Program-made: the position numbers and the translations under genes
Assembly (NCBI RefSeq): GCF_021730395.1
Contig: NC_069369.1
Location: 15,475,210 to 15,539,209, forward strand
DNA length: 64,000 nt
DNA from: Mercenaria mercenaria
Taxonomy: Eukaryota
Reading direction: 5' to 3'
Part shown: piece by piece, positions 1,366 to 64,000 of the stretch
Layout of the letters: each line of letters begins with the position of its first letter
Numbering within the stretch: position 1 is the first letter of the stretch
The notes under the pieces: model-generated
What the model was told of the DNA's origin: nothing
Seen by the model: the letters and a program-made list of their open reading frames with translations, nothing else
Databases searched by the model: none

Positions 1366-2111
1366 TGTACCAAGTGATCAGGTTTGTACACTTTGCATGT
1401 CTTCTTGATGAGGTCAACATTTGATAGCCATATGATCTTTGACCTTCATGTCTCACATTGACTTTTATCATAGCAAACTTTTTCACAGTTAAATGAAAAT
1501 CAATTAACCAGTCCAAAATAAAGCTATCTTGAACTTTGACCTTCCAGTGTGACCTTTATCATAGTGACTTGAGTTGTGCCCTCAGACATCAATGATGAGG
1601 CACACAACTAGTGCTAGTCTTGTGAAAATCCTTTCAGCGATTTATAAGATACGAAACAGGCATAAAGTTAAATTAATTAAACCTCCAAGTCTGACCTTGA
1701 CCTTGGACCCAGTAACCTGAGTAATATGTGATTTTCATGGTATTATCATGGTAAATAATTACATGAAAATATCTGAAAGTTCATCAAACTGTTTCATAGA
1801 TATGCCTTCGGAAAGGAGATATGGATACACAGACTGTCGACAATGCACAACTCCAGTAAAAGCCCCATATACTATGTATATATGGGTATAATAATTCTGA
1901 AAATACAGACATTGCAGCAGTGTCTATATCTTATGAGAATATATGCAAGTACATGTGTTAAGTTTTAGTTTGGCACATATTTAAACTATCTATGTGATAC
2001 CTACATCATATTTAGTATTATTTGTTTCAAATGCAATGCCTCAAAAGCAACCTTTTTCAAAAGTTGACAAACTAAGTAATATGGGAAACAAATGCTGTCT
2101 GATGACAGCGC

Positions 2112-3298
2112 GCTCGACTATTCGAAGAATTGATTGAAGAATGGGGTCAAAATATTTCCACAGATATTCAGACAAAAGAAATAAATAGATTAGACAAACA
2201 ATGTTCCTGTATTTCTTTGATTTCGATAAGTCTTGCACTAAATGGCAATGTATGAACCAATTTCAAAGTCCAAAAAGGGCCATAATTCAGTCAAAATAGT
2301 TATGTACACTTGCCTACAGATAGAAATCATAATGATAAACAAGTGTTCAAAGTTTAAAAGCCATATGTCAAATAGTTTTTACAAAACATGGACTTGTATG
2401 AAAACAGAACCAATTTCAAAGTCCAAAAAGGGCCATAATTCAGCCAAAATGGATGACAGAGTTATGTACTGTTTCCCACAGATAGAGACTATTACACTAA
2501 ACAAGTGATAAAAGTTTCAAAGCCATAAGTCAAACACTTTACAAAAAATATGAACTGGTACGGAAAACTTAACAAAGATTTCTAAGTCAAAAGGGGCCAT
2601 AATTCAGCCAAAATCCATGATGGAGTTATGTACTCTTGCCTATAACTGGATGTGGTGATGGTAAACAGGTGTTGAAAGTTTCAAAGCTTTATCTCAAAAG
2701 AATTTGTCAAAATATGAACTGGTACAAAATATTAACCCAGATTTCTAAGTCAAAAAGGGCCATAATTCAGCCAAAATTCTAGATGGAGTTATGTGCTTTT
2801 GCCTATAACTGGACTTAATGATGGTAAACAAGTGTTGAAAGTTTCAAAGCTTTATCTCAAAAGACTTTGTCAAAATACGAACTGGTACGAAAAACTTAAC
2901 CAAGATTTCTAAGTCGAAAGGGGCCATAATTCAGCCAAAATCCTTCATGGAGTTATGTACTCTTGCCTATAACTGGCCATGGTGATGGTAAACAAGTGTT
3001 GAAAGTTTCAAAGCTTTATCTTAAAAGACTTTGTCAAAATATGAACTGGTACGAAAAACTTAACCATGATTTCTAAGTCAAAAGGGGCCATAATTCAGCC
3101 AAAATCCTTGATGGAGTTATGTGCTCTTGCCTATAACTGGCCATGCTGGTGGTAAACAAGTATTGAAAGTTTCAAAGCTTTATCTCAAAAGACTTTGTCA
3201 AAATGTAGACTGGTACGAAAAACTTAACCAAGGTGTGACGCCGACGCCGACGCCGTGGTGAGTAGGATAGCTCTACTTATTCTTCGAATAGTCGAGCT
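2112..3298. mobile_element. non-autonomous TIR element, family A (TIR GCTCGACTATTCGAAGAAT...ATTCTTCGAATAGTCGAGC) with a subterminal (GACGCC)3 module and an internal tandem array of about 150 bp x 6.5
   Basis: The terminal inverted repeats are visible at 2112-2130 and 3280-3298. The tandem array spans 2240-3230. The module GGTGTGACGCCGACGCCGACGCC sits at 3234-3256. Confidence 0.7.
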
Positions 3299-4021
3299 AA
3301 AAATGACAAAAATTTGATTTCATGTTGATATCTAGCTCAACTTTACACAACAACAACAACTAAAAGTTAGCAAACAACCTGTCTACAGATAAGAAACAAT
3401 GATACTATATGACTGAGGCTGAGATTTCAATGTGTTGCACTGAATACAAATAAATTGCCTATTAATGATAATAAATGTCTAAATTTGTCTCAGAATAATT
3501 TAAACTTGATAATGGTTTATTTAACAAAATGCAGGAATTCTAAATATTTTCATAAATACTTTATACCTCAGTCTCTAATTCAAATTCTTTTAAATGAAAC
3601 TTCGCAGTAAATAATAAAGTTCTAAGTAACAATTTTGGGGGCTGAATCAATACACAGCTGTTAGTTCCATATTAATCAATTCACATGGAGATACAACAGT
3701 GTATTGTAAAATTGTAACACTGTATTGAGTATTTAAACATCTCAAAATCCTTTACTTAAGCTTTGGTTTTATAGAAGGAACATACTTAATATATAAAATC
3801 TTGGACCATTACAAATGTAGGTGGATTTTCCAAATACAAATTCACAGTTTATTCATAAATTGAAAAGGATTTGATTATTTCAACACAGCTTATAATATTC
3901 CTATGTATGCAACTCCTAGAGACTTTAGGCATGTAATTAAAATTTCTTTTTTGTAAAATTAGGGCAAATTTTATAAACAAGTTGTCACAGAAGAAGTGTA
4001 TAATACTGTAGAAACTTGAAT

Positions 4022-11829: not shown

Positions 11830-13150
11830 CATCTGAACTTTGTTCCGGGTGAACTATTAGTATAGGTGGATGGTCCGGCGTCCATCATCCTGTGTCCTGC
11901 GTCAACATCTTCTCCTCTGAAACTACTGGTCAGAATTACACTAAACTTGGTCAGTAGCATCCTTGCATGGACCTCCATCAATTTTGTTCAAATGGTTCAC
12001 CTTTGCTTTTAGGGGCTGCCAGAGCTAAAAATAGAAAAACCTTTAAATAACTTCTTCTCATGAACCGCTTGATGGATCTTCATCAATCTTGGTCTGTAGC
12101 ATCATTATAAGGTCTTCTCCCAAATTTGTTCAAATGGGGGCACTTGGACCCTTTTAAGGGCCGCTACAGTTTAAATTATAAATGCCTTCAAATGACTTGT
12201 TCTCATGAACGTCTCGATGGATTTTCATCGAACTTGGTATATAGCATCGTTATAAGATCCACTCCGAATTTTGTACATATGGGGGCTAAAGTTAGAAATA
12301 CATTTAAATAACTTCTTTTTATACTGCTGTACGGATCTTCATCAAATATGGTTTGTAGCATCATTACAAGGTCCTCTCCCAATTTTGTTCAAATGGGGAC
12401 GATTGGCCCTTCTTAGGGGCTACCAGAGCTAAAATTAGAATTGCCTTTAAATCGCTCCTCATGAACCACTCGATGAATCTTCATTAAACTTGACTTGTAG
12501 CATCATTATAAAGTCCTTCACCGACATTGTTCAGTAGGGGGCAATTGTCCAATTTTAGGGGCTGCTAGAGTTAATAAAGATAGAAACACCTTTAAACAAT
12601 TTCTTCTCATGAACCGCTTTATGGATCTTCAGAGGATCATTATAAGGTCTATTCTCAAAAATGGTTCAGTTGGGGGCACTTTGCCCCATTTAGGGGCCAC
12701 TAGAGCTAAAAATAGAAATACCTTTAAAAGACTTCTTCTCATGAACCACTTGATGGATCCTCATCAAACTTTGTCTGTAGCATCATTAGAAGGTCCTTTC
12801 TGAATTTTATTCAAATGGGGACAGTTGGCCTCTTTTTAGGAGTAAAAAAATAGAAATAATTTTGAACTAACTTCTCATTAATTCCTGGGTCTTCATCAAA
12901 CCTTGTATGGAGCATCATAAGGTCCTTTTCCATGTTTGTTTGATTGGGGGCACTTGGCCCCTTTAAGTGGCCGCTAGAGCTTTAAATAGAAATACCTTTG
13001 AAGTACTTCTTCTTATGAATCACTTGATGGCTCTTCATCAAACTTGGTCTATAACATTATTATAAGGTATTAATGACTTATATCAAATTTGTTCAAATGG
13101 TGGCACTTGGGCCCTTTAAGGGGCCACTAGAGTTAAAACAGAAATACCTT
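11830..13150. repeat. tandem satellite, about 160 bp x 8, in MVP intron 1
   Basis: Recurring unit ...CATCAATTTTGTTCAAATGGGGGCACTTGGCCC...GGGGCTGCCAGAGCTAAAAATAGAAA.... Confidence 0.8.
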
Positions 13151-13386
13151 TAAATGATTTGTCTGATGGTGATGCGTTTTTGATGCGTGACAGAAAAATA
13201 TAGGAAAAAAACACTTTTAAAATTTTGTTTTAATGAACGGCTTAAAGGATTTTCACCAAACCTAGTTAGAAGCAATGTCTATGTCTACTTAAGCCCATTT
13301 GGGCCTCTTGTTTGTTTATACATGAAATTATTTCCCTTTTATAAAGTACAATACATTTGTATTTATGTCAGTTTTCCCACTAATTA

Positions 13387-14513
13387 GCTTGACTATTCGA
13401 AGAATAGTCTAGCTATTCTACTCACCCTGGCGTCGGCGTCGGCGTCACACCTTGGTTAAGTTTTTGCATGCAAGTACATACAGCTATCATTTAAAGGCAT
13501 ATAGCTTTGAAACTTATTTATTCTTTTTCTAGGTCAATTACTAACCTCACTGGGTCAAGTTCCATAACTCTAACATGTATTTTGAGCAAATTATGCCCCC
13601 TTTTGGACTTAGAAAATTCTGGTTAAAGTTTTACATGCAAGTTACTATCTCCAAAACTAATGTAGATATTGAATTGAAACTTCACATGTGCCTTCGGGGT
13701 TATAAAACTAGTTGATAGCACCAAGTCCCATAACTCTGACCTTCATTTTGGGCAAATTATGCCCCCTTTTGGACTTAGAAAATTCTGGTTAAAGTTTTGC
13801 ATGCAAGTACATACAGCTATTACTAAAAGGCATATAGATTTGAAACTTATTTTTTTTTTCTAGATCAATTACCTACCTCACTGGGTCAAGTCCCATAACT
13901 CTGACATGTATTTTGGGCAAATTATGCCCCCTTTTGGACTTAGAAAATCCTGGTTAAAGTTTTACATGCAAGTAACTATCTCCAAAACTACTACAGATAT
14001 TAAATTGAAACTTCACACGTGTCTTCGGGGTTATAAAACTAGTTGATAGCACCAAGTCCCATAACTCTGACATGTATTTTGGGCAAATTATGCCCCCTTT
14101 TGGACTTAGAAAATCCTGGTTAAAGTTTTGCGTGCAAGTACATACAGCTATTACCAAAAGGCATATAGCTTTGAAACTTATTTATTCTTTTTCTAGGTCA
14201 ATAACCAACCTCACTGGGTCAAGTTCCATAACTCTTAACATGTATTTTGAGCAAGTTATTCCACCTTTTGGACTTAGAAAATTCTGGTTAAAGTTTTACA
14301 TGCAAGTTACTATCCCCAAAACTAATGCAGATATTGAATTGAAACTTAACATGTTTCTTCGGGGTTATAAAACTAGTTGATAACATCAAGTCCCATAACT
14401 CTGATATGTATTTTGGTCAAATTATGTCCCCTTTCTAACTTAAAACTCTTTTGATATTTCACATTTTGGGTAATAATTTCCTGCTTCTGTGACAATATTT
14501 CGAATAGTCGAGC
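13387..14513. mobile_element. family A TIR element, second copy in opposite orientation, carrying a different internal satellite (about 190 bp x 5.5)
   Basis: GCTTGACTATTCGAAGAAT at 13387 and TTTCGAATAGTCGAGC at 14498-14513. GGCGTCGGCGTCGGCGTCACACCTTGGTTAAG at 13429-13460. Confidence 0.7.
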
Positions 14514-14989
14514 TTGGCCTCTTGTTTAAAAATGCAATCATGTTTAAAGTAACATGATTGGTATTGATTGACATAAAAAGCTATTATTAACAATTGTAGA
14601 CTGCCAGAATGCAAACCCAGGCACAGGTTATAACATTAGGTTTATATAGGTAAATACATTATTGTTATGATTAGGTTGATTTTAATATAAGTAGTGCAGC
14701 TCAGAATGGACCAACATTGGTATTAACTGTCTCTGGTGTGTAACTTAAAAACAAGTTTAATTAGTACCATATATATGTCATGCATTTCAGTTGTTTATTA
14801 ATTTAGATTACCTCCCTTTAGTATGATAAACTATTTCATTATAGTTTTGTTTAATTTTTTTACCAGTTTGAAAATAAAACCACAGTGAATCATTGAAATA
14901 CAGATGTTGATTTGGCATGCAAAATGTTATACATTATACCAGATTAATATAGTGCCCTTTTCATGATAAATGCGTTCGTAGGCGCTTTA

Positions 14990-16260: not shown

Positions 16261-17632
16261 GGCAAAAAGAAATAGCCTTAAGGCAATGATTGTAATAGAA
16301 ATTTATTGTTGTATTGTGCATACATATATTCATATATAGAAGTTATTAAATGTGTATAAAAATAGGTATGACTGTAAATAAATTTACTTTGACGTAGATA
16401 TAGACGTAGATTTGCAGTTAGTTTATCTGACTATACTAAACTGAAACATATTTCTGACATCGCTGATACTTAAGGTAGTAATCTGAGGTCAAATGTTTAG
16501 GTTCATAGGTTAGATAATATCACACATCTCTCCAGTCAGTTTTATATTAAGGTATAGGTTATCCATTATTAAAGCCTTTACCTTAACTGTAAAAAAGGTT
16601 TCCATACAGGCGGCCAGTCTCATTTAACTATATTTTATGATATTATCTAATTTCTGTATATTCTATTACATTTATTTAAGGAGAAAAAGACGATTTACAT
16701 AATGTTAGATCACTTTTAGAAATGTATATTTCTTTCATTTTTATAGAATTTTATAATTGTTCCCCTAAGTATTTTAAAAGCTGAGTATTTCTTTTGATTT
16801 CTGTATAATCACTAGTTGATAGATAATGGAATAACAGTATGAACAAAAAGGCAAATGCTAAAACTGCATGTAGCTTTAGACTTAATTTATTTTCAGTCTG
16901 TCCTTGGTTAACATTCAGGATAGGTAAGCAAAGGGAGCTAATAATAGTTTTAAATCTTGCATTTCTCATAAATTTTGGCTAAATATAACTGTCAATACTA
17001 GTTTTTGACAAATATAAAAAATAGTTCTTATTTACCGGTAAGTCACTTACAAGTGGAACACTGGAGAGGACTACAGGAATTCCCTCTGCATATAAGGTAC
17101 TTTTTGTGGCTTGATGGGTACTTCATAAATAACAAAAAAAAAAAACCTAATAAAGGTCTGTTCATGAGAACATCCATCCCTCTGTCCATCTGCAAATCTG
17201 GATCCTGCTTTACTCAAAAAGTATTCAAGCTAGGTTCATAAAACTTGGTGTGTGAATAGAGGGCAATACATGTATATAGATTATGCACATACATGACTTC
17301 ATGACTTATGCTTGTAGGTCAAAGGTCTAGGTCACTATTGAAGGTCAAGTAAATCATTGATTTTGCTCCATAACTTTTATATGCATTGATGGATTATCTT
17401 AGTGCTATGCAGAAATGTTCCCCATGATGAGATATTGTCAGCACATGACCTATGCTTGTCAGTCAAATGTCAAGGGCACTGTTGAAAGTTTTCCACCAGT
17501 AGGGGACTTCTGTCTTGCCACTGCAATACTTGGTCACTTGTATTCATGAAGTTCCCTAGGCTTTTGTTGATAAAATTAATACTTATGCTAAGATAATTCT
17601 TACTTAAACAAGAGCTGTCGGAGGACAGCAAC

Positions 17633-18566
17633 GCTCGACTATTCAACAGCCTTGTTGACTGAATGAATACGAAAGTCGAAAAAGGGGCATAATTTAAAAA
17701 AGCAAAATAGGGTTATGGAACCTGCATAGTGCTTATCAGCTCATGACAGTGGACAAGTGTGTGAAGTTTCAATCCATTCCCATTAGTGGGTACTGAGATA
17801 CCAGCTTACACATAAGAATTTAACCCAAAACTCCTAAGTTTAAAAAGGGGCATAATTTTGTAAAATGCAAAGTTGAGTTATTGACCTTTTGCACTGCATG
17901 TCATATCATGACAGTGAACAAGTGTGTGAAGTTTCAATCCTTTCCCATTAGTGGATACTGAGATACCAGCGTACATACAAAAACTTAACCAAACATTTCT
18001 ATGTTGAAAAAGGGGCATAATTTTGTCAAAAAGCAAAATAAAGTTATGGGACCTGCTTTGTGCAGTAAGATCATGACAGTGAACAAGAGTGTGAAGTTTC
18101 AATCCATTCCAATTAGTGAGTACTGAGATACCAGCTTACATACAAAACCTTAACCAAAAAATTCTAAGTCAAAAAAGGGGCATAATTTTGTAAAAAAGCA
18201 AAATAGAGTTATGGAACCTGTGCAGTGTAAGTCAGTTTATCACAGTGAATAAGTGTGTGAAGTTTCAATCCATTCCCACAAGTGGTTACTGAGATACCAG
18301 CTTACATACAAAACCTTAACCAAAAATTTCTTAGTCAAAAAAGGGGCATAATTTTGTGAAAAAGCAAACTAGAGTTATGGAACCTGTGCAGTATAAGTCA
18401 GTTTATCACAGTGAATAAGTGTGTGAAGTTTCAATCCATTCCCACAAGTGGTTGCTGAGATACCAGCTTACATACAAAAACTTAACCATATCGGGACGCG
18501 GACGCCGACGCGGACGCCGACACATGGGCGAGTCCAGTAGCTCTACTATTCTATGAATAGTCGAGC
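17633..18566. mobile_element. family A TIR element, third copy (internal array of about 150 bp x 5, related to the 2240-3230 array)
   Basis: GCTCGACTATTCAACAG at 17633 and CTATGAATAGTCGAGC at 18551-18566. GACGCGGACGCCGACGCGGACGCCGACAC at 18494-18523. Confidence 0.65.
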
Positions 18567-20204
18567 TAAAAATGTTATTTTAAATTACATGTTTGGATAA
18601 AAATATTTCAATTTTTTTAAATTCATTTACTAAATTTCACCACTAAAATTATTTATTGCATTAAAACATAACATAACATAACATAAAGTTGATTAACATA
18701 ATAATTTATAGAACTACATGTTATAGTTAATTTAAAAGTTAGATATTGTATATGTAAATATAACACAAGGAAAACTGGAAGTACCAGTAATATTCACATT
18801 AAAACATACATTAATATGAAAACATATTATTCGGCTGCAATAATATTTTAATTATTGCATTTCTGTACATGATAACCCCCAATCAAGCATCACTATCACA
18901 TAGTCATACAAGATTAAAGTCAAATGACATGTTTGGCAATAAGTTAACCCAATGCTGACATATTTCTGTATATTATGGTAACTAGTTAGATTAAATCTCT
19001 GTTTGTTTGACATGCCCCACCGCTAGTGACAAATACTATGCCCCAACGATAACTTGATATTTACAAACATGACTATAAATAGATTAAAATGGAACATAGG
19101 GAAATTACAATCTAAATATTTCTAAATTTTGTACCAATTGCAAATTAGCTCAGTGGTAAAGCATGCAGTCCATGTTAAACAGATCTTTTTCCGTGTGGGT
19201 TCGAAACTCAGCATCGACACTAAATTTTTATTTTTATTTCTCATAAACATTTAGATTCCTTCATGAACTATGTGACAACACAACAGAGAAGTATCTTAAG
19301 CCATTATGGCAGATCAGAAAAGTTTAGCATTATATCAAAGATGATATTGACTGAATGCATGCATATAAGCCATGCAAATAATAAACATATTGTTGTGTTA
19401 TATAAAGGCATACATACAAATACAAACCATCAAGGAAAGAAACAAAAATGAAAACGAAAAGAAAAAAAACGCCACAAAAATACAAAAAATGAAAAAAAAA
19501 TCCTCACGAAGATTCGAACCCACAAAATGATTTGCTTATGATATTCAGTTGTTATCTGCGTTTTACCCGACTGAGCTATGTTTCCATATAATCATAGTAT
19601 ATATTTAAGATGAAAGAAATACTAATATTTACTTAGAGGGTAACGTGTAAGCATTATGGATTGATATTTCATCGGTTATCATGAAATAGAATCGTCCTCG
19701 CGTTTCAGCGGGAATCTTGTTATCATTGGGGATTAGTATTAAGGTTCTTGTCTAAACACAGTCACAGCTATAGCCACAATAACAACTTTTAAGTTAAAAT
19801 CTAAATTATGGATATATATATTGTTATAAATTTTGATAATTTATATTACTGTTCAAAATCCAAATTTACATTGTTGTCAAGTAAAATGCCATTGCAATAC
19901 TTGGTCACTTGTATTCATTAAGTTCTCTAGGCTTTTGTTGATAATACTTATGCTAAGATCATTCTTACTTGGTTCGACATCCAGGATAGGAAAATCAAAT
20001 TTAACAATATTGACATTGAAAATCTAATATGCTATAGTTTCAGTGAGCAAAAATAAGGGAAAATAACCAGATGATAAAGTTTTCAACAATTCCTTTCCTT
20101 GACCAGAATCTGATAAAACACTTTTAAATGCATGTATTATTACTTACCCTTAAAAATACAAGAGTTAATGCCCGTGTAATTATTCATCAATAAAAGTATA
20201 TCGG

Positions 20205-21189: not shown

Positions 21190-22500
21190 ATAAACTCACA
21201 TTGCTGTGGACAGTTAGTTGATACAATATTCTTAGACTTGTCTAAAGCATTTGACCTAGTCAACCATTCGGTACTGCTGCAAAAACTAAAAACATATAAC
21301 TTTAGTCAAGAATCACTAGATTTGTTTAAATCATATTTAAGTAGTAGATTTCATAAAGTATGCATTTCTGGAAAAATATCTGAATCAAAGCCAATAATGT
21401 CTGGTGTCCCTTAAGGCTCTGTGCTTGGCCCTCTGCTTTTTATTTTATATATCAATGATCTGCCCCAACATCTGAAAGTCTGTTTCACTGATATTTTTGC
21501 AGATGATACAACCTTAACTGTCGTTGGAAACACCAAACAAGAAATCAGTTCTGAGTTGCAATCTGTACTCTCTAAAACTGAGGACTGGTGCAAGCATAAT
21601 TATATGACAGCTAATGTACAAAAAAAAAACCAAAGCAATGTTTATCTCATCAAGAGAAACTAATAAAGATACTTTGAACCCATCACCTCTTACATTCAAT
21701 AAAACTGTGGAATATACAGAATCAGAAAAGCTGTTAGGTGTACATGTCAGTAATAACTTAAGCTGGAAAGATCATATTGATAACACACTAAAGAAATGCA
21801 ATTCCTTACTTTATCTTTTACAATGAATTAAATGCTACCTAGATATTCTCCAGAGAAAACTTTTCTTTAATATTTATATTTTACCCCACTTGGATTATTG
21901 CTGCACGATTTGAGGTAATTGCAACAGAGATTCAATGGAAAAAATTACAAAATTTAAAAAAAGAGCAGCTCAAATCAGCCTTGATAAATGTTTTGATTTT
22001 CCATCTGAAGATTTGTTTAAATAGCAGAACTGGATGAAATTCTATGAACGACTGCATTATTAGAAAGCAGTTTTAGTCTTTAAATCAATTAACAATCTTA
22101 GTCCATCCTATCTTCAAAGTAAATTTAAATTTGTACATAATCCTTACATTACTCTAAGATCAGAATCAAATAAATGTCTTGAAGTACCTAAACCAAGCTT
22201 AGAACTGTACAGAAAATCCCTTGAATACTCAGGACCAAAAATCTGGAACTTATTTAACCTCTTGAAGTAAAAAATTCTAACAGTCTTGAGCAGTTCAAAA
22301 GATCCTATCTGACAGACTGGAAAATGAACAACATAACCCCTATGCTTAGATTTTCTTGTCATCATGCTATTGTCAAATTTGTGTTTGAAATGTATTTGTA
22401 AATATTGTATATAATTTTGAGGCTCACTTGGAAGATTGGGCATGCCTAATAGTGTTGCCTCAATGAATAAAATCATTATTATTATTATTATTATTATTAT
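21190..22500 (+). pseudogene. LINE (CR1/RTE-like) reverse-transcriptase fragment, decayed, with an (ATT)n tail
   Basis: Reads LDLSKAFDLVNHSVLLQKLK...GVP*GSVLGPLLFILYINDLP...FADDTTL...LLGVHVSNNLSWKDHI in one frame with a stop and frameshifts. (ATT)10 at 22470-22500. Sits in MVP intron 1. Confidence 0.75.
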
Positions 22501-22506
22501 CATTAG

Positions 22507-22900
22507 CCATTAGCTCATCTGATTTTTAAAAAAAAAATGATGAGTTATTGTCTTCACTTGATCGGCGTCGGCGTCGGCATTGCCTGGTTAAGTTTTATGT
22601 TTAGGTCAGCTTTTCTCCTAAACTATCAAAGCTATTGCTTTGAAACTTGCAACACTTGTTCACCATCATAAGCTGACCCTGGTCCGGATCCAGGGCCGGG
22701 CCGAGGGGGCCTGTGTCCCCCCCCCCACCCCTCCAGTTGGCTGAGAAGTGACCTATACTCATCAAAAGATGCACCCTACTATTTTGGCAAAGGAATATTT
22801 TTCTCTCAAAATTTAGACCCAGAAACGCACCAGAGGCCACCATTTCATATCTGTATTTTAAAATTTTCCAGGGGGAGAGCCCCTGTACATCAAGAAACAT
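22507..22900. mobile_element. truncated family B element (5' end only) interrupted by a GC-rich palindromic insertion (22690-22880)
   Basis: TAGCTCATCTGATTTTTAAAAAAAAAATGATGAGTTATTGTCTTCACTTGATCGGCGTCGGCGTCGGCATTGCCTGGTTAAG is nearly identical to the 24935 copy. Confidence 0.5.
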
Positions 22901-23870
22901 AACTCAGTGCTCTTGTTATTATTATGGAAACACAAGGCATTCCAAACTAAAAACAGTTGATTGGCTACGATAGTTTTGAAATTTTGTGTGTCTTGTCATA
23001 AAATGAGATATGTAGATTTTACCGTTCCTTAAACATGGAAAAAGTTGCATTTGATGCAACATTAATACATAAATTTTGCTTTTCTAACAGCCGCTGAAGA
23101 TTTTGTTGCTTCAGAGGTTTATAATTTTATAAGAATGTAACATCGGATCAGTTTAAATACTCTGTAAGGAGATATAAGCAAGAGTTTCGTTAATTTTTGA
23201 AGTAGAAAGTGGAAGTTGCAAAGTAGGGAGGGGTCCTCCTATTTAGAACATAATTTGATACAGGAAAAGTAGCCAGGGCTTCAGAACTCTTTAGCAGGGA
23301 GTATTCCTCGTCCCTATGACCCTTAATGAAACCCATAATGAGTGGAAACAAGCTCATGTAATGATAATTAATGTAATTTCATATCAGAATATATTGTAAT
23401 CTATTTCTCAACCCATGTATATGTGTAGTACTAAACAAATATTTGGCATGAATCTATTTACAAATATTACTCTTTTGTGAAACTAAGTGTCTTCTTTTTC
23501 ATATTTATTTGTGTGTCCTCTTTTGTAGACAAGCCACTAGACTGGTAATAAAACATTACAAAGTAAGGTATTTTCATGTTAGGAGCCAAAAACTTGTATT
23601 TTCTGGAGAATTTCTTGGAGAAAGTATAGAAGGATTATGGTATCGATCAGAAAAAGGATATAGAGTAGCTCCATTTACTAGAATTGAAATATAAAAGAAA
23701 ATATAACTAGGAGCTATTCTACCTTCTTCAGTATTGTAGTTCATTATATGGACAAAATTGTTCTTGGATGCCATGATGTTGATGCATTGCGCTAGCTTAA
23801 ATATTGACATGAATTGTGTGGGTAAGCTCTAGAACTGGTAATATGAAATAGATTATTTTGTCTCTTTCAG

Positions 23871-24004
23871 AATTCCAACATTACAAGAGTGGAGACTGGT
23901 CCACAAACTGTAGTCTTGGATGCCAATGAAAGACTGGTTGCCGGCCCACTTACTATGATTGTTATACCACCAGTCCATTTTTGTATGATTAAAAATCCTA
24001 TGTC
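23871..24004 (+). CDS. MVP: MVP exon 2 (NSNITRVETGPQTVVLDANERLVAGPLTMIVIPPVHFCMIKNPMS)
   Basis: Acceptor tctctttcag and donor GTAAGT. Matches the first MVP repeat (NSNVSRVEVGP...VPPRHYC..NPV). Ends in phase 2. Confidence 0.85.
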
Positions 24005-24293
24005 GTAAGTATATCTGTTGATGTTTTTAAAGACTACGGTAAAACTTGATTATATACAATTATATTCATTTAAATAATTTTTATGTGCTGTACAATTATA
24101 CTAGACCGTTCTTTCAGAAAAAAGGATTACAGTAACATACTTGGCATAAAATTCAAATACTTTTATTTTAATGTGTTAAAGACAGTTAACTATATCTAGT
24201 TGTCAGATTAACAGTTATTCTTAGCTAGTAATTGACAGCTTCCCCACATGGTACTTTCAATAAATGAACTGAAATATTTTTTTCTCTGTCCAG

Positions 24294-24357
24294 TAAATAT
24301 GTACCGGGAAAAGTGTGTGAGTTGAGACTGGGTCAGTTTGATGTCAGGTTCCATGCT
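24294..24357 (+). CDS. MVP: MVP exon 3 (S)KYVPGKVCELRLGQFDVRFHA
   Basis: Acceptor ctctgtccag and donor GTAAGT. Completes the tc- codon carried from exon 2. Similarity to vertebrate MVP is weak (V-R-x-R-H-A). Confidence 0.65.
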
Positions 24358-24670
24358 GTAAGTACACATCAACTTGGTGCTAGTTTAACTGTTTAGTATT
24401 TTAATAATTTAAAAAAAAAATGTCTGATATTGTACAGTGACAGAATTAAAAAATAAAATTTGAAAAAGAAACATGTATCTTGATTTAATCAGTGATGTTA
24501 GAACAAAATGGTATGCTATTCATGTTCTAGGAGATGGCATTACCGATATAATTTCATAATTATTGTTTTGCAGAATATCTATATAAATTATTACTATCGT
24601 AATAATGTTTTTTATTTGTTTTCAGATTTTCAAAATTTGATGATAATTATAGTTTTCTGTTTGCCTGCAG

Positions 24671-24898
24671 GAGCCATTTTGTTTATATCCCGGTGAGGAG
24701 TTGGTTGGGGCAGAGAGCTATGGTAAGGGCAGTTCAGATTACAAAGCAGCTATCAGAGCACAGCCGGTCATCCAAGCTGACCATGCCATACGACTTACTG
24801 CAGTCCTCGATCACACAGACACAGATGGTGTTAAGAGAAAGGCTGGTGATATCTGGCAGATAGAGGGACCATTGATGTACTTTCCTACACCGAATGCT
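24671..24898 (+). CDS. MVP: MVP exon 4 (EPFCLYPGEELV...IRLTAVLDHTDTDGVKRKAGDIWQIEGPLMYFPTPNA)
   Basis: Acceptor ttgcctgcag and donor GTAAGT. Matches DPFPLYPGE...LHLKALLDFEDKDG.K..AGDEW..EGP..YIP. Contains roughly 10 extra residues relative to vertebrate MVP. Confidence 0.85.
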
Positions 24899-24934
24899 GT
24901 AAGTTAGACAGACTGCTAGAACAGTCCTCATTTT

Positions 24935-25750
24935 TAGCTCATCTGATTTTTTGAAAAAAAATGATGAGTTATTGTCATCACTTGAGCGGTTGTCGGCGTC
25001 GGCGTCTGCGTCGGCGTTGCCTGGTTAAGTTTTATGTTTTGGTCAGCTTTTCTCCTAAACTATCAAAGCTATTGCTTTGAAACTTGGAATACTTGTTCAC
25101 CATCATAAGCTGACCCTGTATGGCAAGAAACATAACTCCATCTTGCTTTTTGCAAGATTTATGGCCCCTTTTGTACTTAGAAAATATCAGATTTCTTGGT
25201 TAAGTTTTATGTTTAGGTCAGCTTTTCTCTTAAACTAGCAAAGCTATTGCTTTGAAACTTGGAATACTTATTCACCATCATAAGCAGACCCTGTACATCA
25301 AGAAACATAACTCCATCTTGCTTTTTGCAAGAATTATTGCCCCTTTTGGACTTAGAAAATCAGTTTTCTTGGTTAAGTTTTATGTTTAGGTCAGCTTTTA
25401 TCCTAAACTATCAAAGCTATTGCTTTAAAACTTACAACACTTGTTCACCATCATAAGCTGACCCTGTACAGCAAGCAACATAACTTCATCCTGCTTTTTG
25501 CAATAATTATTGCCCCTTTTGGACTTAGAAAAATCATTTTCTTGGTTGAATATTATGTTTGTCAACTTTTCTCATAAACTATCAAAGCTATTTCTTTAAA
25601 ACTTGCAACAGTTTTTCACCATCATAAGTGGACACTGTACATCAAGAAACATAACTCTATCCTGCTTTTTGCAAGAATGATGGCCCTTTTTAGACTTAGA
25701 AAATCATGGGTAGGACAATATTTCTATTATACAAAAAAAATCAGATGAGC
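24935..25750. mobile_element. TIR MITE, family B (TAGCTCATCTGATTTTTT...AAAAAATCAGATGAGC) with the same subterminal (GGCGTC)n-CCTGGTTAAGTTTTATG module and a 120-bp x 5 array. Sits in MVP intron 4
   Basis: Perfect TIRs at 24935-24950 and 25735-25750. A truncated copy of the same 5' end is at 22507-22690. Confidence 0.7.
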
Positions 25751-25751
25751 G

Positions 25752-26032
25752 TCAGCACTCGCAAGGCGGTGCTCTTGTTGTATACATGGTTCCTTATATG
25801 TAGTTCACTTGCCCCTCATCGTTGTGGGTTCGAGCCTCACTTGAGGCGTTGAATTCTTCATGTGAGGAAGCCATCCAGCTGGCTTACGGAAGGTCGGTGG
25901 TTCTACCCAGGTGCCGGCTCATGATGAAATAATGCACAGAGGGGCACCTGGGGCCACCATTAATGCTGGAAAATCACCATATGACCTATCATGTGTCGGT
26001 GCGACGTTAAATCCAACCAAAAAAAAAAAAAA
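25752..26032 (+). mobile_element. tRNA-derived SINE with a poly(A) tail (family also at 57961-58226)
   Basis: GTGGGTTCGAGCCTCAC box-B-like motif, a conserved body TGAATTCTTCATGTGAGGAAGCCATCCAGCTGGCTTA, and an A14 tail at 26019-26032. Confidence 0.7.
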
Positions 26033-26430
26033 CATTTTATCTAAGTTCAGACCTAGATGTAAAATTACTTACTACATGTACATATATTCAATTTGCCAAA
26101 ATTGTTCATATAATGCACCTATACCACAGGGATTTTGCAGTGGTGTAAGGTATTGTAGAAATATGTTTAATGTATATATTAACAAACAGTAAACAAAAAC
26201 TTTTTTTTTGACCACAAATACTATAGAGCTCTGAGTCTTATAATCAAGCCTTTGAATGTAGATATGACTAAAGAAGACAACCTTTCTTAATTGTAAGCAC
26301 ATGCAAAGACTTTTTAGGACATGATTTTAGTCAGATTGGTTGGAGTGTGAAACTTTAAACAGATATGTATATCTTGCATTTACACAGATTAAGACCAGAG
26401 TAGAATTTCCTTTCTTCACTTTGTTTGCAG

Positions 26431-26522
26431 GAAATAGTACGTATAGTTGCTCCAGACATTATCAGGGCTGATCAGGCAATGAGGCTGAAGGCTTTACAGG
26501 ATTTCACTGACAAAACTGGAAG
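26431..26522 (+). CDS. MVP: MVP exon 5 (EIVRIVAPDIIRADQAMRLKALQDFTDKTGR)
   Basis: Acceptor ttgtttgcag and donor GTAAAC. Matches VEIIQATIIRQNQALRLRA...D..GK.R. Confidence 0.85.
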
Positions 26523-26699
26523 GTAAACTACAACAAAAATACCCAATAATAAGGCTTTAAGATAGTTTTTTAAGCCATTGAACTTTCTTATTCTTAAATT
26601 TAGGTGGTGATTTATAAAAATACATAGTGGTGCAACGCTTAGCATGTATTTACTTTATGGTCAAGTTGCATTTGGTGTGAATTATTAGTAAAAATTTGA

Positions 26700-26960: not shown

Positions 26961-27169
26961 GCAAGTAACTGTATTCCTGTATTGCTGCTATTCATAATCC
27001 AGGAACACAGGGCAGGTTATGCTCACTGCCAATATCTGCGGGGAACAAGCTTGTTTTGGGACAAAATCCGTGCCATTTTAGGAACAGAATACTGGTTAAC
27101 TGATTATATTTGCTGGAAGCAACTTACAGTATTTACTGGGAACAAGTCAGTTATGATACAAAATCAAAG

Positions 27170-27770
27170 GTAACTGACCATATTTGCTGGGAACATGTCA
27201 GTTTTGGTACAAAATTCAGGTCATATTTGCTGGTAACATGTCAGTTTTGGTACAGAATCAAAGGTAACTGACCATATTTGCTGGGAACATGTCAGTTTTG
27301 GTACAAAATTCAGGTCATATTTGCTGGTAACATGTCAGTTTTGGTACAGAATTCAGGTTAACTGACCATATTTGCTGGGAACATGTCAGTTTTGGTACAG
27401 AATCAAAGGTAACTGACCATATTTGCTGGGAACATGTCAGTTTTGGTACAAAATTCAGGTTAACTGACTATATTTGCTGGGAACATGTCAGTTTTGGTAC
27501 AGAATCAAAGGTAACTGACCATATAAATTTTGCTGGGAACATGTCAGTTTTGGTACAGAATTCAGGTTAACTGACCATATTTGCTGCGAACATGTCAGTT
27601 TTGGTACAGTACCAAAGGTAACTGACCATATTTGCTGGGAACATGTCAGTTTTGGTACAGAATTCAGGTTAACTGACCATATTTGCTGCGAACATGTCAG
27701 TTTTGGTACAGAATTCAGGTTTACTGACTTATTTGTTGGGAACAATTTAGTACTGATACATTTCTTGACC
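27170..27770. repeat. tandem repeat, about 60 bp x 10, in MVP intron 5
   Basis: Unit AGGTAACTGACCATATTTGCTGGGAACATGTCAGTTTTGGTACA(A/G)AAT(T)CA. Produces the spurious 104-aa ORF 27488..27802. Confidence 0.85.
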
Positions 27771-28597: not shown

Positions 28598-29321
28598 GTA
28601 AGTTAATAAGCTCTTTTGTTTGATACAGAACTTTCTGGTTCATTCATTTTGACCTTGCATGTAGTTGCATAATTATTTTGTAGGTCCTGTCATTAAAAAT
28701 AAAATTGGTGGCTGGGACATATAATGTTACCCCTGTCCCTTCGTTTGGTCTTTAATTTTTTATATGAATGGACAGATATTCAAGGTACTTGGCACAGACA
28801 TTCACCATAACTTTTATGTAAAACCTACTCCCTTAAAGGTCAAGGTCACACTTATTGATCAAAGATTTTTCTCCGTTCTATCTTGTCCAGTCTGCTCAGA
28901 TCTATCTTGTCCGGTCTGTAACTTCTGTATTTCAGTCTGTAACTTCTATTTTTGTATACATAGATATATATTCAGATAAATTGGCACAGAATTTATCATA
29001 TTAAACAAGACATGTCTCAGGTATAAGAATTAGACTCTAAGCTCATAGATCGAGGTCACACTAAAGGTCAAAATTTTGTGTCATTTTTCTTTTCGGTCAA
29101 TAACTTCTATTATTATGCTTAGAAGGATGATGAAACAACTTTTTGCAAACTTTCACCATAACTAAACCATGTGTCCTATACAAGACCCAGACCCATAGTT
29201 TTGAGGTCAAGGTTACATTTAGAATTTTTTAAGGTCATTTTTCTTTTCTCGTCCATAACTACAAGTGTTCTATTGTCAGTTTGATGCTGTAGTAACACAG
29301 ACAAAATGATTGCATTTGATT

Positions 29322-30884
29322 TTTAGCTCACCTGTCACATAGTGACAAGGTGAGCTTTTGTGATCACCCTTCGTCCGTCGTTTGTGCGTCAACAATTTCG
29401 TGTCTGCACGATAGTGGTTTCGTTTATGATTTTATTTTAACCAAACTTGCACACAACTTGTATCACCATAAGATCTCGGTTCCTTTCTTGAACTGGCTAG
29501 ATCCCATTATGGGTTCCAGAGTTATGGTCCCTGAAAGGGCCAAAATTAGCTATTTTGATCTTGTCTGCACAATAGCAGCTTTATTTAGACTTGATTGGTA
29601 CCAAATTGGCACACAACTTGTATCACCATAAGATCTTGGTTCCTTTATTGAACTGGCCAGATTCCATTATAGGTTCCAGAGTTATGGCCCCTGAAAAGGC
29701 CAAAATTAGCTATTTTGACCTTGTCTGCACAATAGCAGCTTCATTTATGATTTTATTTTAACCAAACTTGCACACAACTTGTATCACCATAAGATCTTGG
29801 TTCCTTTCTTGAACTGGCGAGATTCCAGTATTGGTTCCAGAGTTATGACCCCTGAAAGGGTCAGAATTAGCTATTTTGACCTTGTCTGCACAATAGCAGA
29901 TTCATTTATGATTTGAATTTAATCAAACTTGCACAAAACTTGTGTCACCATAAGATCTTGGTTCTTTTGTTGAACTGGCCAGATCCCATAATGGGTTCCA
30001 GAGTTATGGCCCATGAAAGGGCCAAAATTAGCTATTTTGACCTTGTCTGCACAATAGCAGCTTCATTTATGACTTGATTTTAACCAAACTTGCACACAAC
30101 TTGTATCACCACAAGATCTTGCTTCCTTTGTTGAACTGACCAGATTCCACCATGGGTTCCAGAGTTATGGCCCCTGAAAGGTCCAGAATTGGCTATTTTG
30201 GCTTTTGCAGCCATATAGAGACTTCATTTATGGTTTTATTTGATACAAACTTCCAAAATATCTTCAACAACAATAAATCTTGGATTCCATGACAAATCAG
30301 ATCCAATCATAGGTTCCAGAGTTATTTTATATCTGATTACCTCCCCTGATTGTAATCAAAATAGATTTATATCAGTAAGTACTTATAGGACTTATTTGAA
30401 ATTTCATTATTGTCATTAGTTGGACTGAGCCAATCAGGGTAGATAACTATGGACTGATTTTATGTCAAATTACCACCCTTTATTTCAAATTAAAATGGGT
30501 ATATCTCCGTAACTAAAGAAGATACTGATCTGAAATTTCATTTATGTCAACAGATTTATTTGGCAGATCCTTCTTTTGTTCACTTACAATAAAAATTTTT
30601 TTTAATTACTTCCCTTTTACATTACTATAAATAGCTTATTTTTAGTAACTTTTTTATTATTGGCCATAGGGAAAAACCGAGACCACTTTTCTGTGGTACA
30701 ATATGGATGGTACCTCCAATTTTTAGGTGTATTTTGACATATCTGTATTTTTTTTTCTTTTTGGTTAAATTTCTTCCCTTTGTTGTTACTGTCCTTTGGA
30801 TTTAGATATTTTTTCTGAGGACCTTCTTGTCCTCAAGTGCAATGATAACAGGTGAGCGATATAGGGCCATCATGGCCCTCTTGT
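29322..30884 (+). mobile_element. hairpin-headed tandem-repeat element, family C (5' TTTTAGCTCACCTGTCACATAGTGACAAGGTGAGC then CGTCCGTCG; 3' GGTGAGCGATATAGGGCCATCATGGCCCTCTTGT). Internal array about 160 bp x 5. Sits in MVP intron 7
   Basis: A 32-bp perfect palindrome at the 5' terminus. The conserved 3' terminus is at 30850-30884. Confidence 0.7.
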
Positions 30885-31149
30885 TCCATTTTAACTTCTA
30901 TTGATGCCACTCAGTGGATTTTCTTTTTCTATATGAATAATCAGATTGTCAGGGAACACAAAACTTATTTCATAGTGAATTGTCTACTTTTGATAGCAAG
31001 GTGCTTTTGACTCAAAATTGATTGATTAGAGACATTAGCTTAGAAGCGTAAAACATTCAGGCACCTATACTTTTTCTCAAAGTAATCTTAGAATATATGT
31101 CAGGCCACAAGAACCTATAAATTACTTTATGGACATTTTAACAGCATAC

Positions 31150-34364: not shown

Positions 34365-34401
34365 GTAACATGTATTTTCTTATTACCATTTTAACTGACT
34401 T

Positions 34402-36580
34402 TTTAGCTCACCTGTCACAAAGTGACAAGGTGAGCTTTTGTGATCGTGCGGTGTCCGTCGTCCGTGCGTGCGCCCGTCCGTAAACTTTTGCTTGTGACCA
34501 CTCTAGAGGTCACATTTTTCATGGGATCTTTATGAAAGTTGGTCAGAATGTTCATCTTGATGATATCTAGGTCAAGTTTGAAACTGGGTCACGTGCCTTC
34601 AAAAACTAGGTCAGTAGGTCTAAAAATAGAAAAACCTTGTGACCTCTCTAGAGGCCATATATTTCACAAGATCTTCATGAAAATTGGTCAGAATGTTCAC
34701 CTTGATGATATCTAGGTCAAGTTCGAAACTTGGTCACATGCCATCAAAAACTAGGTCAGTAGGTCTAAAAAACCTTGTGACCTCTCTGGAGGCCATATAT
34801 TTCAAAGATCTTCATGAAAATTGGTCAGAACGTTCATCTTGATGATATCTAGGTCAAGTTCGAAACTGGATCACGTGCCTTCAAAAACTAGGTCAGTAGG
34901 TCAAATAATAGAAAACCCTTGTGACCTCTCTAGAGGCCACATTTTTCATGGGATCTGTATGAAAATTGGTCTGAATGTTCATCTTAATGATATCTAGGTC
35001 AGTTTTGAAAGTGGATCACGTGCCTTCAAAAACTAGGTCAGTAGGTCAAATAATAGAAAAACCTTGTGACCTCTCTAAAGGCCACATTTTTCATGGGATC
35101 TGTATGAAAGTTGGTCTGAATGTTCATCTTGTTGATATCTAGGTCAAGTTCGAAACTGAGTCACGTGTGGTCAAAAACTAGGTCAGTAGGTCTAAAAATA
35201 GAAAAACCTTGTGACCTCTCTAGAGGCCATATATTTCATGAGATCTTCATGAAGATTGGTCAGACTGTTCATCTTGATGATATCTAGGTCAAGTTTGAAA
35301 GTGGGTCACGTGCCTTCAAAAACTAGGTCAGTAGATCAAATAATAGAAAAACCTTGTGACCTCTCTAGAGGCCATATTTTTCATAGGAATTGTATGAAAG
35401 TTGGTCAGAATGTTCATCTTGATGATATCTAGGTCAGTTTCGAAAGTGGGTCACGTGCCTTCAGAAACTAGGTCAGTAGGTCAAATAATAGAAAAACCTT
35501 GTGACCTCTCTAGAGGCCATATTTTTCATGGGATCTGTATGAAAGTTGGTCTGAATGTTCATCTTAATGATATCTAGGTCAATTTTGAAAGTGGGTCACG
35601 TGCCATCAAAAACTAGGTCATTAGGTCAAATAATAGAAAAACCTTGAGACCTCTCTAAAGGCCATATTTTTCATGGGATCTGTATGAAAGTTGGTCTGAA
35701 TGTTCATCTTGATGATATCTAGGTCAAGTTCGAAACAGGGTGATGTGCGGTCAAAAACTAGGTCAGTAGATCTAAAAATAGAAAAACCTTGTGACCTCTC
35801 TAGAGGCCATACTTGTGAATGGATCTCCATAAAAATTGGTCAGAATGTTCACCTTGATGATATCTAGGTCAAGTTTGAAACTGGGTCACGTGCCTTAAAA
35901 AACTAGGTCAGTAGGTCAAATGATAAAAAAACCTTGTGACCTCTCTAGAGGCCATACCTTTCATGGGATCTGTATGAAAGTTGGTCTGAATGTTCATCTT
36001 GATGATATCTAGGTCAAGTTTGAAACTGGGTCAACTGCGGTCAAAAACTAGGTCAGTAGATCTAAAATTATTAAAATCTTTTGACCTCTCTAGAGGCCAT
36101 ATTTTTTAATGGATCTTCATGAAAATTGTTCTGAATGTTCACCTTGATGATATCTAGGTCAAGTTCGAAACTGGGTCACGTGTGGTCAAAAACTAGGCCA
36201 GTAGGTATAAAAATAGAAAAACCTTGTGACCTCTTTAGAGGCCATATTTTTCATGAGATCTTCATGAAAATTAGTGAGAATGTTCACCTTGATGATATCT
36301 AGGTCAAGTTTAAAACAGGGTCACGTACCCTCGAAAACTAGGTCAATAGGTCAAATAATAGAAAAACCTTGTGACCTCTCTAGAGACCATATTTTTCAAT
36401 GGATCTTCTTGAAAATTGGTCAGAATTTTTATCTTGATAATATCTAGATCAAGTTCAAAACTGGGTCACATGAGCTCAAAAACTAGGTCACTAAGTCAAT
36501 AATAGAAAAAACGAAGTCATACTCAAAACTGGGTCATGTGGGAAGAGGTGAGCGATTCAGGACCATCATGGTCCTCTTGT
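34402..36580 (+). mobile_element. family C hairpin-headed element carrying a 165-bp x 12 satellite. Sits in MVP intron 11
   Basis: 5' TTTTAGCTCACCTGTCACAAAGTGACAAGGTGAGCTTTTGTGATCGTGCGGTGTCCGTCGTCCG. 3' GAGGTGAGCGATTCAGGACCATCATGGTCCTCTTGT at 36545-36580. Confidence 0.75.
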
Positions 36581-44207: not shown

Positions 44208-44226
44208 AATGACATTTTTTCTACTT

Positions 44227-62929: not shown

Positions 62930-63670
62930 TATACCAATTTCATTTTTAGCTCCACTTTTCGAAGAAAAAGTAGAGCTATTGCACTCGCCCCGGTGTCGAT
63001 GTCACTGTTGGTTAAAGTTTTTGATAAAGACAAATATCTCTGTTACTATCAAAGATATTGACTTGAAACTTAAAATAGCTATTTACTATCAAAGTCTACA
63101 CCAGGAGAAACAATCCCCATAACTTTGATTTGAATTTTGATGGAATTATGCCCCTTTTTAACTTAGAATTTTTGGTTGAAGTTTTTGATTAAGTCAGTAT
63201 CTCTGTTACTATCAAAGATATTGACTTGAAACCTAAAATAGTTATTTACTGTCAAAGTGTACACCAGGAGAAACAATCCCCATAACTCGGATTTGAATTT
63301 TGATGGAGTTATGCCCCTTTTTAACACAGAATTTTCGGTTAAAGTTTTTGATAAAGTCAAATATCTCTGTTACTATCAAAGCTATTGACTTGAAACTTGA
63401 AATAGTTATTTATTATCAAAGTCTACATCAGGAGAAACAACACACATAACTCTCATTTGAATTTTGATGGAGTTATGCCCCTTTTTGACTTAGATTGTTT
63501 TGTTTAAGTTTCTGATAAAGTCAAATATCTCTGTTACTATCAAAGCTATTGACTCGAAACTTAAAATTGTTATTAACTATCAAAGTGTACACTTGGTGAA
63601 ACAATCCCCACAACTTTGGTTTGAAGGTTGTCAAAGTTATGCCCCTTTTTAACTTAGAATGTTTGTTTAA
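62930..63670. mobile_element. tandem-repeat-carrying element (5' TTTAGCTCCACTTTTCGAAGAAAAAGTAGAGCTATTGCACTCGCCCCGGTGTCGATGTCACTGTTGGTTAAAGTTTTTGAT) with a 170-bp x 4 array
   Basis: Same terminal-module logic as families A and B: TAGCTC..., then a GC-rich GTCG/GGCGTC motif, then TGGTTAAAGTTTT. Confidence 0.5.
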
Positions 63671-64000
63671 GGTTTTATAAAGTTTTTACTGGCAAAGCTC
63701 TAATTTTGAGTCTAGCACTGAGAAAAGTCAAGCGTGCTGTCTTAAGGACAGCTCTTGTAAACAGATGGAAACTGTAGAAGTTAAGTACAAAAGGTACAGA
63801 GGTGGTTGTAATGCTGGCAAGTCCAAAAATGGGCATAACTCCAGCAAAAATGAATGGACACAAAAATGCCTATGATATGTGCATGTCCACTTCTTAGAGA
63901 TAAAGTTTAACAAATATTATTTTAATTAGATGGAAACTGAACGAGGTGCCAAGTACAGATGTACTTGTAATACTGTTAAAGGCGGTCAAACAAATTGAGG

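Follow-up and report, generated by a model that had tools for sequence, protein, structure and literature searches.

The window analyzed here, a stretch of 64,000 nucleotides from Mercenaria mercenaria (contig NC_069369.1, positions 15,475,210 to 15,539,209 of the forward strand), is AT-rich (GC ~0.35) and dense in short arrays of 145-190-bp tandem repeats. It contains exons of a major-vault-protein-like gene (PF01505 homologues, with ENA protein matches at 62-85% identity), and a full-length element of repeat family B, B2, is located in intron 3 of this gene (Table 1). An original prediction had pointed out that family B carries the same subterminal module as another family (A), a (GGCGTC)n microsatellite followed by TGGTTAAGTTTT, inside terminal inverted repeats (TIRs) that it regarded as unrelated. 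The module is the junction between the left-flank microsatellite and the first conserved box of the tandem-repeat monomer. The elements that carry it (families A and B and a variant C) are most probably sister subfamilies of one lineage of non-autonomous Helentrons (HINEs).

B2 starts 33 nt past the donor of exon 3. Intron 3 has 1532 nt here; in L008, the closest relative found (87% amino-acid identity), it has ~260 nt. B2 more than doubles this intron of the major vault protein gene. The sequence TAGCTCATCTGATTTTTT marks the ends of family B, as predicted. It is found at 24935-24952 with no mismatch, at 22511-22528 with one mismatch, and as an inverted copy at 25735-25752 with two mismatches, a total of three matches in the window versus 0.24 expected.

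The 5′ subterminal inverted repeat (subTIR) of B2, at 24936-24952, is a perfect match over 16 nt to the reverse complement of 25733-25750. It also pairs with an internal inverted repeat (IR) to form a left-flank hairpin, with a DNA fold of -7.6 kcal/mol and equally good folds in 2 of 200 shuffles. The linker that follows, together with the GAGT end of the IR, is homologous to GAGCTATTG.ACTC.CC of A and C and to GAGCTATTATGATCAC of E, another element in the window. The array expected behind the module is present, and GGTTAAGTTTTATG is found in the window at 22586, 25023, 25198 and 25371. The extent originally given to this copy, 24935-25750, stops too early, as the real 3′ end is located at ~25779, past a hairpin and CTCTTGTT.

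The second copy of the family, B1, had been described as truncated at 22507. It is instead rearranged, and holds a foreign insertion of 196 bp as well as a monomer remnant and a 3′ tip. B1 keeps 0.6 monomer before the insertion and 28 bp of monomer after it, the latter fused to GTGCTCTTGTT. The insertion has a G/C-rich head, no second copy in the window, and CCCTG on both sides, and may be another element with a 5-bp duplication. Scans of the region 22000-26500 for tRNAs and Rfam families gave no match.

Further copies were found in metagenome contigs with the pattern GCGTCNGCGTC-N(0-24)-GGTTAAGTTTT. Of the seven matching contigs, three are chance matches in GC-rich or bacterial coding DNA. 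The remaining four are AT-rich and eukaryote-like, and contain B-type (L002, JGI contig Ga0182086_1164442, and L006, JGI contig Ga0182091_1439633) or A2-type elements (L004 and L007). All four have a complete left flank, with unrelated host DNA immediately before the T-run and AGCTC end. A viral contig collection scanned for the module gave 0 matches.

The B copy in L002 is complete, with five monomers compared to 3.9 in B2. It stops at the same ...GGTGCTCTTGTT as B2 and is followed by different host sequence. Although inserted elsewhere, this copy agrees with B2 in its ends, including the 3′ end at ~25779. L002 and L006 differ in their upstream DNA but share 406 nt at 100% identity, and B2 is 94-97% identical to both. 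Family B has thus moved recently, and the three copies indicate recent transposition together with a change in array length. L007 also contains a minimal A-type element of ~105 bp (1040-936, minus strand), with no microsatellite and no array. In this element the subTIR, IR and linker are joined to the 3′ subTIR, the GCTGTC/GACAGC hairpin and CTCTTGTT.

The module and the termini

With at most one mismatch, GGCGTCGGCGTC is found at only five loci in the window, versus 0.00 expected. Each locus is positioned 40-60 nt inside a 5′ TTAGCT(C/T) end and no more than 9 nt upstream of GGTTAAGTTTT. The (GGCGTC)n tract followed by TGGTTAAGTTTT is present in both B copies, as predicted, and in three family A copies. 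The element at 62945 (variant C) has a degenerate version, which is the third variant that had been noted (62988-63021). Modules lacking the context of an element end were sought, and none was found in the window, where five of five GGCGTC tracts are in left flanks, or in the four eukaryote-like metagenome contigs. The module is tied to element ends and is not placed at random with respect to them.

Monomers from A1, A2, A3, B and C can be aligned from end to end and have the boxes TTGAAACTT, CATAACTC and TTATG(G)CCCCTTTT.GACTTAGAA in common. Within arrays they are 77-86% identical; between arrays, identity is 51-59% for individual monomers and 56-65% for consensus sequences. All five arrays have the same starting phase, with TGGTTAAGTTTT located 4-7 nt past the microsatellite, and all end in the ..GACTTAGAA block. 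TGGTTAAGTTTT had been taken for part of a separate subterminal module, but this box opens each monomer in all five arrays.

On the other side of the junction, 10 of 11 left flanks have a GTC-rich microsatellite at a distance of 40-60 nt from the 5′ AGCTC. The density of GTC in these microsatellites is 3-5 per 30 nt, with 1.12 per 100 nt as the background. A GTC microsatellite is also present in families whose arrays are quite different, (GTCC/GTCG)n in D, F and I; element E is without one. Since the GTC microsatellite is regular in left flanks and TGGTTAAGTTTT opens every monomer, the module is the joint of two regular parts. (GGCGTC)n is a hexamer variant of the (GTCN)n microsatellite that is typical of the HINE class.

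The six elements that carry the module (A1, A2, A3, B1, B2 and C) have one common layout. The 5′ half consists of a T-run, a 5′ inverted repeat led by AGCTC, a nearby complementary IR, the linker GAG(C/T)TAT..TC.C, and the GTC-based microsatellite. The 3′ half contains the array, with about 4-6 monomers of 164-173 bp, then an unrelated spacer and a 3′ inverted repeat ending in GAGC. The tip begins with G and 1-2 nt and continues through a short palindrome to CTCTTGT(T). The arrangement of the subTIRs in B2, with the 5′ one near the terminus and the 3′ one internal, is also found in A1, A3, C and D-F, and 5′ TTTAGCTC and the 3′ palindrome with CTCTTGT also delimit D1-D3, E, F and I.

Hairpins formed by subTIR and IR are predicted in 8 of 8 left-flank types (z of -2.7 to -6.2), with a conserved AGCTC/GAGCT base and different distal stems. 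The 3′ hairpins end 6-8 nt before the element end in A1, A3, C, B2, the B copy of L002, D1, D2 and F. Three different sequences occupy this same position, GCTGTC/GACAGC (in A1, after the 3′ subTIR), AGCAC../..GTGCT, and GG(G/A)(C/T)CAT/ATGG(C/T)CC. In variant C the hairpin is followed by CTCTTGTA, and in A2 the 3′ hairpin is deleted.

The core of the subTIR is AGCTCGACTAT in A, AGCTCCACTTT in C, AGCTCATCTGA in B, and AGCTCACCTG(T/A) in D and E. The IR and the 3′ subTIR change together with it, in compensatory variation of one design. In global alignments (1000 shuffles), the left flank of B is similar to those of A1 (p~0.003), C (p<0.001) and E (p~0.002), and its right flank to that of A3 (p~0.002). 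B has AGCTC, GAG(C/T)TATTGT..TCAC, GAGCG, the position of the palindrome, and CTCTTGTT in common with A and C. By these sequence comparisons, the termini of A, B and C are related, contrary to the original prediction. A conserved internal segment is indeed combined with differing inverted repeats, but these are co-varying variants of one design and not interchangeable, unrelated termini.

A T-run is located 5′ of all 12 elements listed, and a T is found directly 3′ of 10 of them. Their flanks are T-rich, and no target-site duplication is visible among them. The 64-kb window contains no open reading frame of at least 133 amino acids.

Table 1. Positions of the elements, their parts and the host gene exons in the window
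Feature	Position	Strand	Description
B2	24931..25779	+	Full-length HINE-like family B element, in intron 3 of the major-vault-protein-like gene
B2 5′ subTIR	24936..24952	+	AGCTCATCTGATTTTTT; T-run before it at 24931-24935
B2 internal IR	24954..24969	+	AAAAAAAATGATGAGT; pairs with the 5′ subTIR (left-flank hairpin)
B2 linker	24970..24991	+	TATTGTCATCACTTGAGCGGTT; with IR end GAGT (24966-24969)
B2 microsatellite	24992..25017	+	GTC(GGCGTC)2TGCGTCGGCGT; GTC-based HINE left-flank type
B2 central array	25022..25703	+	3.9 x 173 bp; monomers opening with TGGTTAAGTTTT at 25022, 25197, 25370 and, degenerate, 25543
B2 3′ subTIR	25733..25750	+	AAAAAAAATCAGATGAGC; 29 nt between its end and the element 3′ end
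B2 3′ palindrome	25754..25773	+	AGCACtCGCaagGCGGTGCT; predicted hairpin
B2 3′ terminal motif	25772..25779	+	CTCTTGT(T); common to all HINE-like families in the window
B1	22510..22917	+	Rearranged family B copy; left flank 22512-22562, microsatellite 22564-22578, partial monomer 22585-22681
B1, right part	22682-22877, 22878-22905, 22907-22917	+	Unrelated insertion, monomer remnant, and 3′ tip GTGCTCTTGTT, respectively
GGCGTCGGCGTC loci	3237-3254, 13429-13446, 18495-18518, 22564-22575, 24995-25012		
A1, family A	2087..3303	-	AGCTCGACTATTCGAAGAATA..; (GGCGTC)3 at 3237-3254; 5.7 x 164-bp array 2298-3232
A2, family A	13384..14526	+	(GGCGTC)3 at 13429-13446; array 13453-14434
A3, family A	17607..18572	-	(GGCGTCCGCGTC)2 at 18495-18518; 4.9 x 165-bp array 17673-18488
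Variant C	62945..63759	+	AGCTCCACTTTTCGAAGAAAAAGTAGAGCT; degenerate microsatellite GGTGTCGATGTC 62992-63003; 4.1 x 164-bp array 63008-63683
D-type HINE	29320..30885	+	AGCTCACCTGTCACA..; (GTCC/GTCG)n microsatellite; 161-bp array
More D/E/F/I copies	34400-36581, 42804-44207, 44225-45174, 60060-61104 (-), 11819-13312		
Major-vault-protein-like gene exons	23871-24004, 24294-24357, 24671-24898, 26431-26523	+	PF01505 homologues

Relationship among families A, B and C

These families are most probably related by common descent, as sister subfamilies of one lineage of non-autonomous Helentrons (HINEs of the DINE-1-like/pearl/Cg_HINE type). The families would have the module in common because the whole organization of flank, microsatellite, array and flank was inherited from a common ancestor. 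Parts that are cis-acting or otherwise constrained would have remained recognizable, with the remainder diverging to ~60% identity. The differing TIRs would represent the variable, mutually compensating part of the triplet of subTIR, IR and 3′ subTIR, and the ends proper would be invariant.

The biology of Helitrons and Helentrons (PMC4067079, PMC12628747) suggests that these elements may be mobilized in trans by an autonomous Helentron, with its Rep/helicase and endonuclease. A rolling-circle-type transfer would run from the 5′ end to the 3′ hairpin and CTCTTGT as its terminator, and insertion would take place into T-rich (TT) sites with no target-site duplication. The copy number of the array would shift through slippage or unequal exchange.

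The divergence of family B is about equal in its parts, with 52-61% identity to A and C for the flanks and 60-65% by consensus for the monomers. No segment between families is above ~65% identity except for short boxes and the microsatellite, and no recent exchange is visible.

Several observations weigh against this explanation of the families as one Helentron lineage. The flanks of A1, A2 and A3 are 74-86% identical but their arrays only 59-62% by consensus, and these arrays differ among themselves as much as they do from those of B and C. The subTIR core of B, AGCTCATCTGA, has one mismatch from the E type and four from the A type. A strictly vertical, clock-like divergence of all modules is too simple. 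The 3′ hairpin of B alone is weak against shuffles (z of -1.0 to -1.3). No autonomous Helentron with matching termini is found within the 64-kb window, and mobilization in trans is presumed from the biology cited above. No empty site was seen, with the orthologous intron of L008 being unalignable, so that the T-run is only possibly part of the element and insertion at T/T is presumed. The sample consists of ~10 elements and four outside contigs.

The decoupling of flanks and arrays would also be expected from a reticulate origin, in which the microsatellite-array cassette or the flanks were swapped between HINE families through recombination, template switching, or end-bypass in rolling-circle transposition. 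Family B would then have D/E-type ends and an A/C-type array. The first 11 subTIR bases of B are indeed one off the E type (AGCTCACCTGA) and four off the A type, its linker is identical to that of E at 14 of 17 positions, compared to 11 of 17 for A or C (by eye), and both its GAGC-to-palindrome spacing and its array are A/C-like. The likeness of the flanks but not the arrays of A1, A2 and A3 points in the same direction, as do another left-flank type (ATGCTCCCCAAAGGGAGAG.., at 40586) in front of degraded A2-like monomers and the minimal element of L007, which has A-type left and right flanks without microsatellite or array. The literature has one array type in different Helitron elements (PMC12628747) and related flanks with unrelated repeats (PMC7492417, group 2). 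A neighbor-joining tree of the monomers joins A1 with B with 77% bootstrap; this grouping was rejected as evidence of swapping, as quartet counts by consensus are 9:8:5, essentially a star tree, and the array phylogeny is treated as such. Moreover, identity between families is nowhere above ~65% beyond the short boxes and the microsatellite, and the flanks of B are about as far from the A/C clade as from the D/E/F clade, which fits an old independent lineage as well. Slower evolution of the cis-acting ends accounts for the decoupling without exchange, and a formal test of recombination would need longer segments. We consider a reticulate origin unlikely. Less likely still is its more specific form, in which B combines D/E-type 5′ ends with an A/C-type cassette and the GTC microsatellite with the boundary block is a hotspot of recombination or re-initiation for the swapping or seeding of arrays; if true, the module would be a functional joint and not passive cargo. 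Of the modular chimerism originally proposed, the decoupling of flanks and arrays is present, but chimerism is not needed to explain family B and there is no identity indicative of recent exchange.

A second possibility, compatible with common descent and adding a function to it, is that the microsatellite and/or the monomer-boundary block is a selected cis element, which could for example bind Rep or a host protein, pause replication, or seed and resize the array through slippage. A (GTCN)n-type tract is located at the same position in nearly all families here, in the Cg_HINEs of Crassostrea gigas and in DTC84/pearl (see below). TGGTTAAGTTTT and the block TTATGCCCCTTTTGGACTTAGAA are nearly invariant, as compared to ~55% for the rest of the monomer, and all arrays start and finish in the same phase inside the boundary block. 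However, E is without a microsatellite, and the minimal element of L007 has intact ends with neither microsatellite nor array. The microsatellite is also highly variable in length and sequence here, and its erosion has been described (PMC7492417). Conservation could come from shared ancestry and concerted evolution. A selected cis function appears rather doubtful, though less so than a reticulate origin.

The view of the families as classical MITEs (miniature inverted-repeat transposable elements), meaning unrelated families of DDE cut-and-paste elements with TIRs and target-site duplications and a common simple repeat, is highly improbable. The elements are short, non-coding and AT-rich, with inverted repeats of 16-17 nt near both ends, as MITEs would be. 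However, the 3′ inverted repeat stops 29 nt short of the element end, with the hairpin and CTCTTGT beyond it in all families. An extra IR lies beside the 5′ repeat, target-site duplications are not seen, the insertion sites are T-rich, and the simple repeat is nowhere in the window except at the 5′ ends of elements. DINE-1-like elements, including molluscan ones, have been moved from MITEs to Helentron-derived HINEs (PMC4067079), and pearl is classed as a HINE (PMC7492417). The subterminal binding site for a transposase that had been suggested is, in the DDE sense, inapplicable to non-autonomous rolling-circle elements of the Helentron type.

The original observation is real but over-read, as Helentron-derived repeat carriers of bivalves normally have this architecture. 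Its value is in annotation and not in new concepts: such elements should be labeled as Helentron-derived HINEs and not as MITEs, with the 3′ boundary set ~29 nt past the inverted repeat. As a signature, (GGCGTC)n-TGGTTAAGTTTT is handy for marking one HINE lineage that spreads satellite-like arrays of 165-173 bp through introns in this bivalve.

Other repeats in the window

The array of A2 is organized as a higher-order unit of 331 bp (2 x 166 bp). Element I (11819-13312, plus strand) is a degenerate HINE with the same 5′ core as family B, AGCTCATCTGA. Its IR (GGGTGAACT) and linker are of the E type, with no compensation for the T at position 7. GTCC and GGCGTC are mixed in the microsatellite of this element, the internal repeats are degenerate, and the 3′ end is GCCCATTTGGGC followed by CTCTTGTT.

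The arrays of elements E (44458-45016) and F (60394-60865, minus strand) are carried by HINEs with AGCTCACCTGA-type ends. Isolated relics of A3-like monomers are located just outside the 5′ end of F (61133-61221 and 61450-61625, minus strand), and may be remnants of an older element that received F. A left-flank type TTTTTATGCTCCCCAAAGGGAGAGTATA.. with (GTCT/GTCC)n is found at ~39120 and 40586 on the plus strand, followed by a 148-bp array (39201-39601) in the first case and by degraded A2-related monomers (40693-41522) in the second.

Other tandem arrays are located at 27130-27744 (51 bp x 12), 37139-37864 (54/161 bp x 13), 1030-1357 (164 bp x 2) and 46237-46756 (163-186 bp x 2), none of them with obvious HINE ends where flanks were inspected. 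The repeat unit at 46419 has weak similarity to the B monomer (z = 4.7). A SINE-like (short interspersed element) repeat is found 24 nt downstream of B2 (25805-26035, plus strand), with a poly(A) end and a B-box-like GGTTCGAGCC. It has a second copy at 57999-58225 (85.5% identical) and no ARAGORN or Rfam prediction.

Comparison with known elements

The architecture of these elements has already been described, and families A, B and C were not matched to any described family. The Cg_HINEs of C. gigas (Vojvoda Zeljko et al. 2020, PMC7492417) have the same order of 5′ subTIR, IR, left-flank GTC microsatellite, repeats, 3′ subTIR and palindrome. In Cg_HINEs the complementary IR is 1-12 nt from the 5′ subTIR, the microsatellite (GTCY/GTCC/GTCK) is shared among families, and the tandem repeats of 140-180 bp are mostly present in up to five copies with a fixed orientation (PMC7492417). 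Their insertion sites are oligo-T/TT with no target-site duplication, and relatedness among their families extends to all modules (group 1) or only to the flanks (group 2) (PMC7492417). The elements described here differ in their microsatellite. The microsatellite here is the hexamer (GGCGTC)n, compared to mainly tetranucleotides in Cg_HINEs, with units of 3 to 8 nt on record. It is also positioned 4-7 nt from the first monomer, and in Cg_HINEs a variable segment of 10-500 bp lies between the two.

The strings of the subTIRs, boxes and monomers gave nothing relevant in the literature or in the readable part of the Cg_HINE supplements (a partial array file, with subTIR table S2 illegible). The arrays of E and F are similar to the CL1 (Cg170) monomer of C. 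gigas (z of 14 and 34, respectively), with ~75% identity over 115 nt. The consensus dimers of A1, A2, A3, B and C have no detectable relation to the Cg170 monomer (z of -0.1 to 1.4). An assignment of the A/B/C monomers to Cg170/BIV160 had been suggested by an 11-nt likeness (AAGTTTTACAT) seen by eye, which is unsupported in local alignment against shuffles, with only the Cg170 monomer compared.

The pearl elements of Crassostrea virginica (CvA/CvE/CvG) and DTC84 of Donax trunculus consist of flank L, a microsatellite, 1-6 core repeats of ~160 bp, and flank R (Gaffney et al. 2003; PMC3879986). As here, one of their inverted repeats is terminal and the other subterminal, a likeness drawn from the published descriptions. 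They also have an integer number of monomers, a constant microsatellite junction, and a block of low variability where monomers meet. They end in 'AA', which is the T-run on the opposite strand, and have been termed a 'cassette' for repeats (PMC3879986). DTC84 differs in having a conserved palindrome at the monomer boundary, with none here, and the microsatellite (ACGG)n, which in DTC84 and pearl is the GTCC motif on the other strand (PMC3879986).

The DINE-1 elements and HINEs of arthropods (Thomas et al. 2014, PMC4067079) have subTIRs of 12-15 bp, located a few nt inside the 5′ terminus and tens of nt inside the 3′ one. As here, they have T strings at their boundaries, a 3′ stem-loop, and an optional microsatellite with central repeats, and they prefer TT targets, as the elements here may (PMC4067079). 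An autonomous Helentron partner with >95% identity at the ends has been demonstrated for DINE-1 (PMC4067079), in comparison to none found in the window, and the likeness noted is structural. MITEs of Lepidoptera with (GTCY)n are cited in the same work. One array type can occur across different Helitron elements (2025 review, PMC12628747), and the seeding of satellites by this class of elements, which had been offered as one meaning of the module, is a published view (PMC7492417, PMC12628747). The (GTCN)n tract, to which these papers assign no function, is located at the same place in Cg_HINE and in pearl/DTC84, and the present locus is one more example of it.

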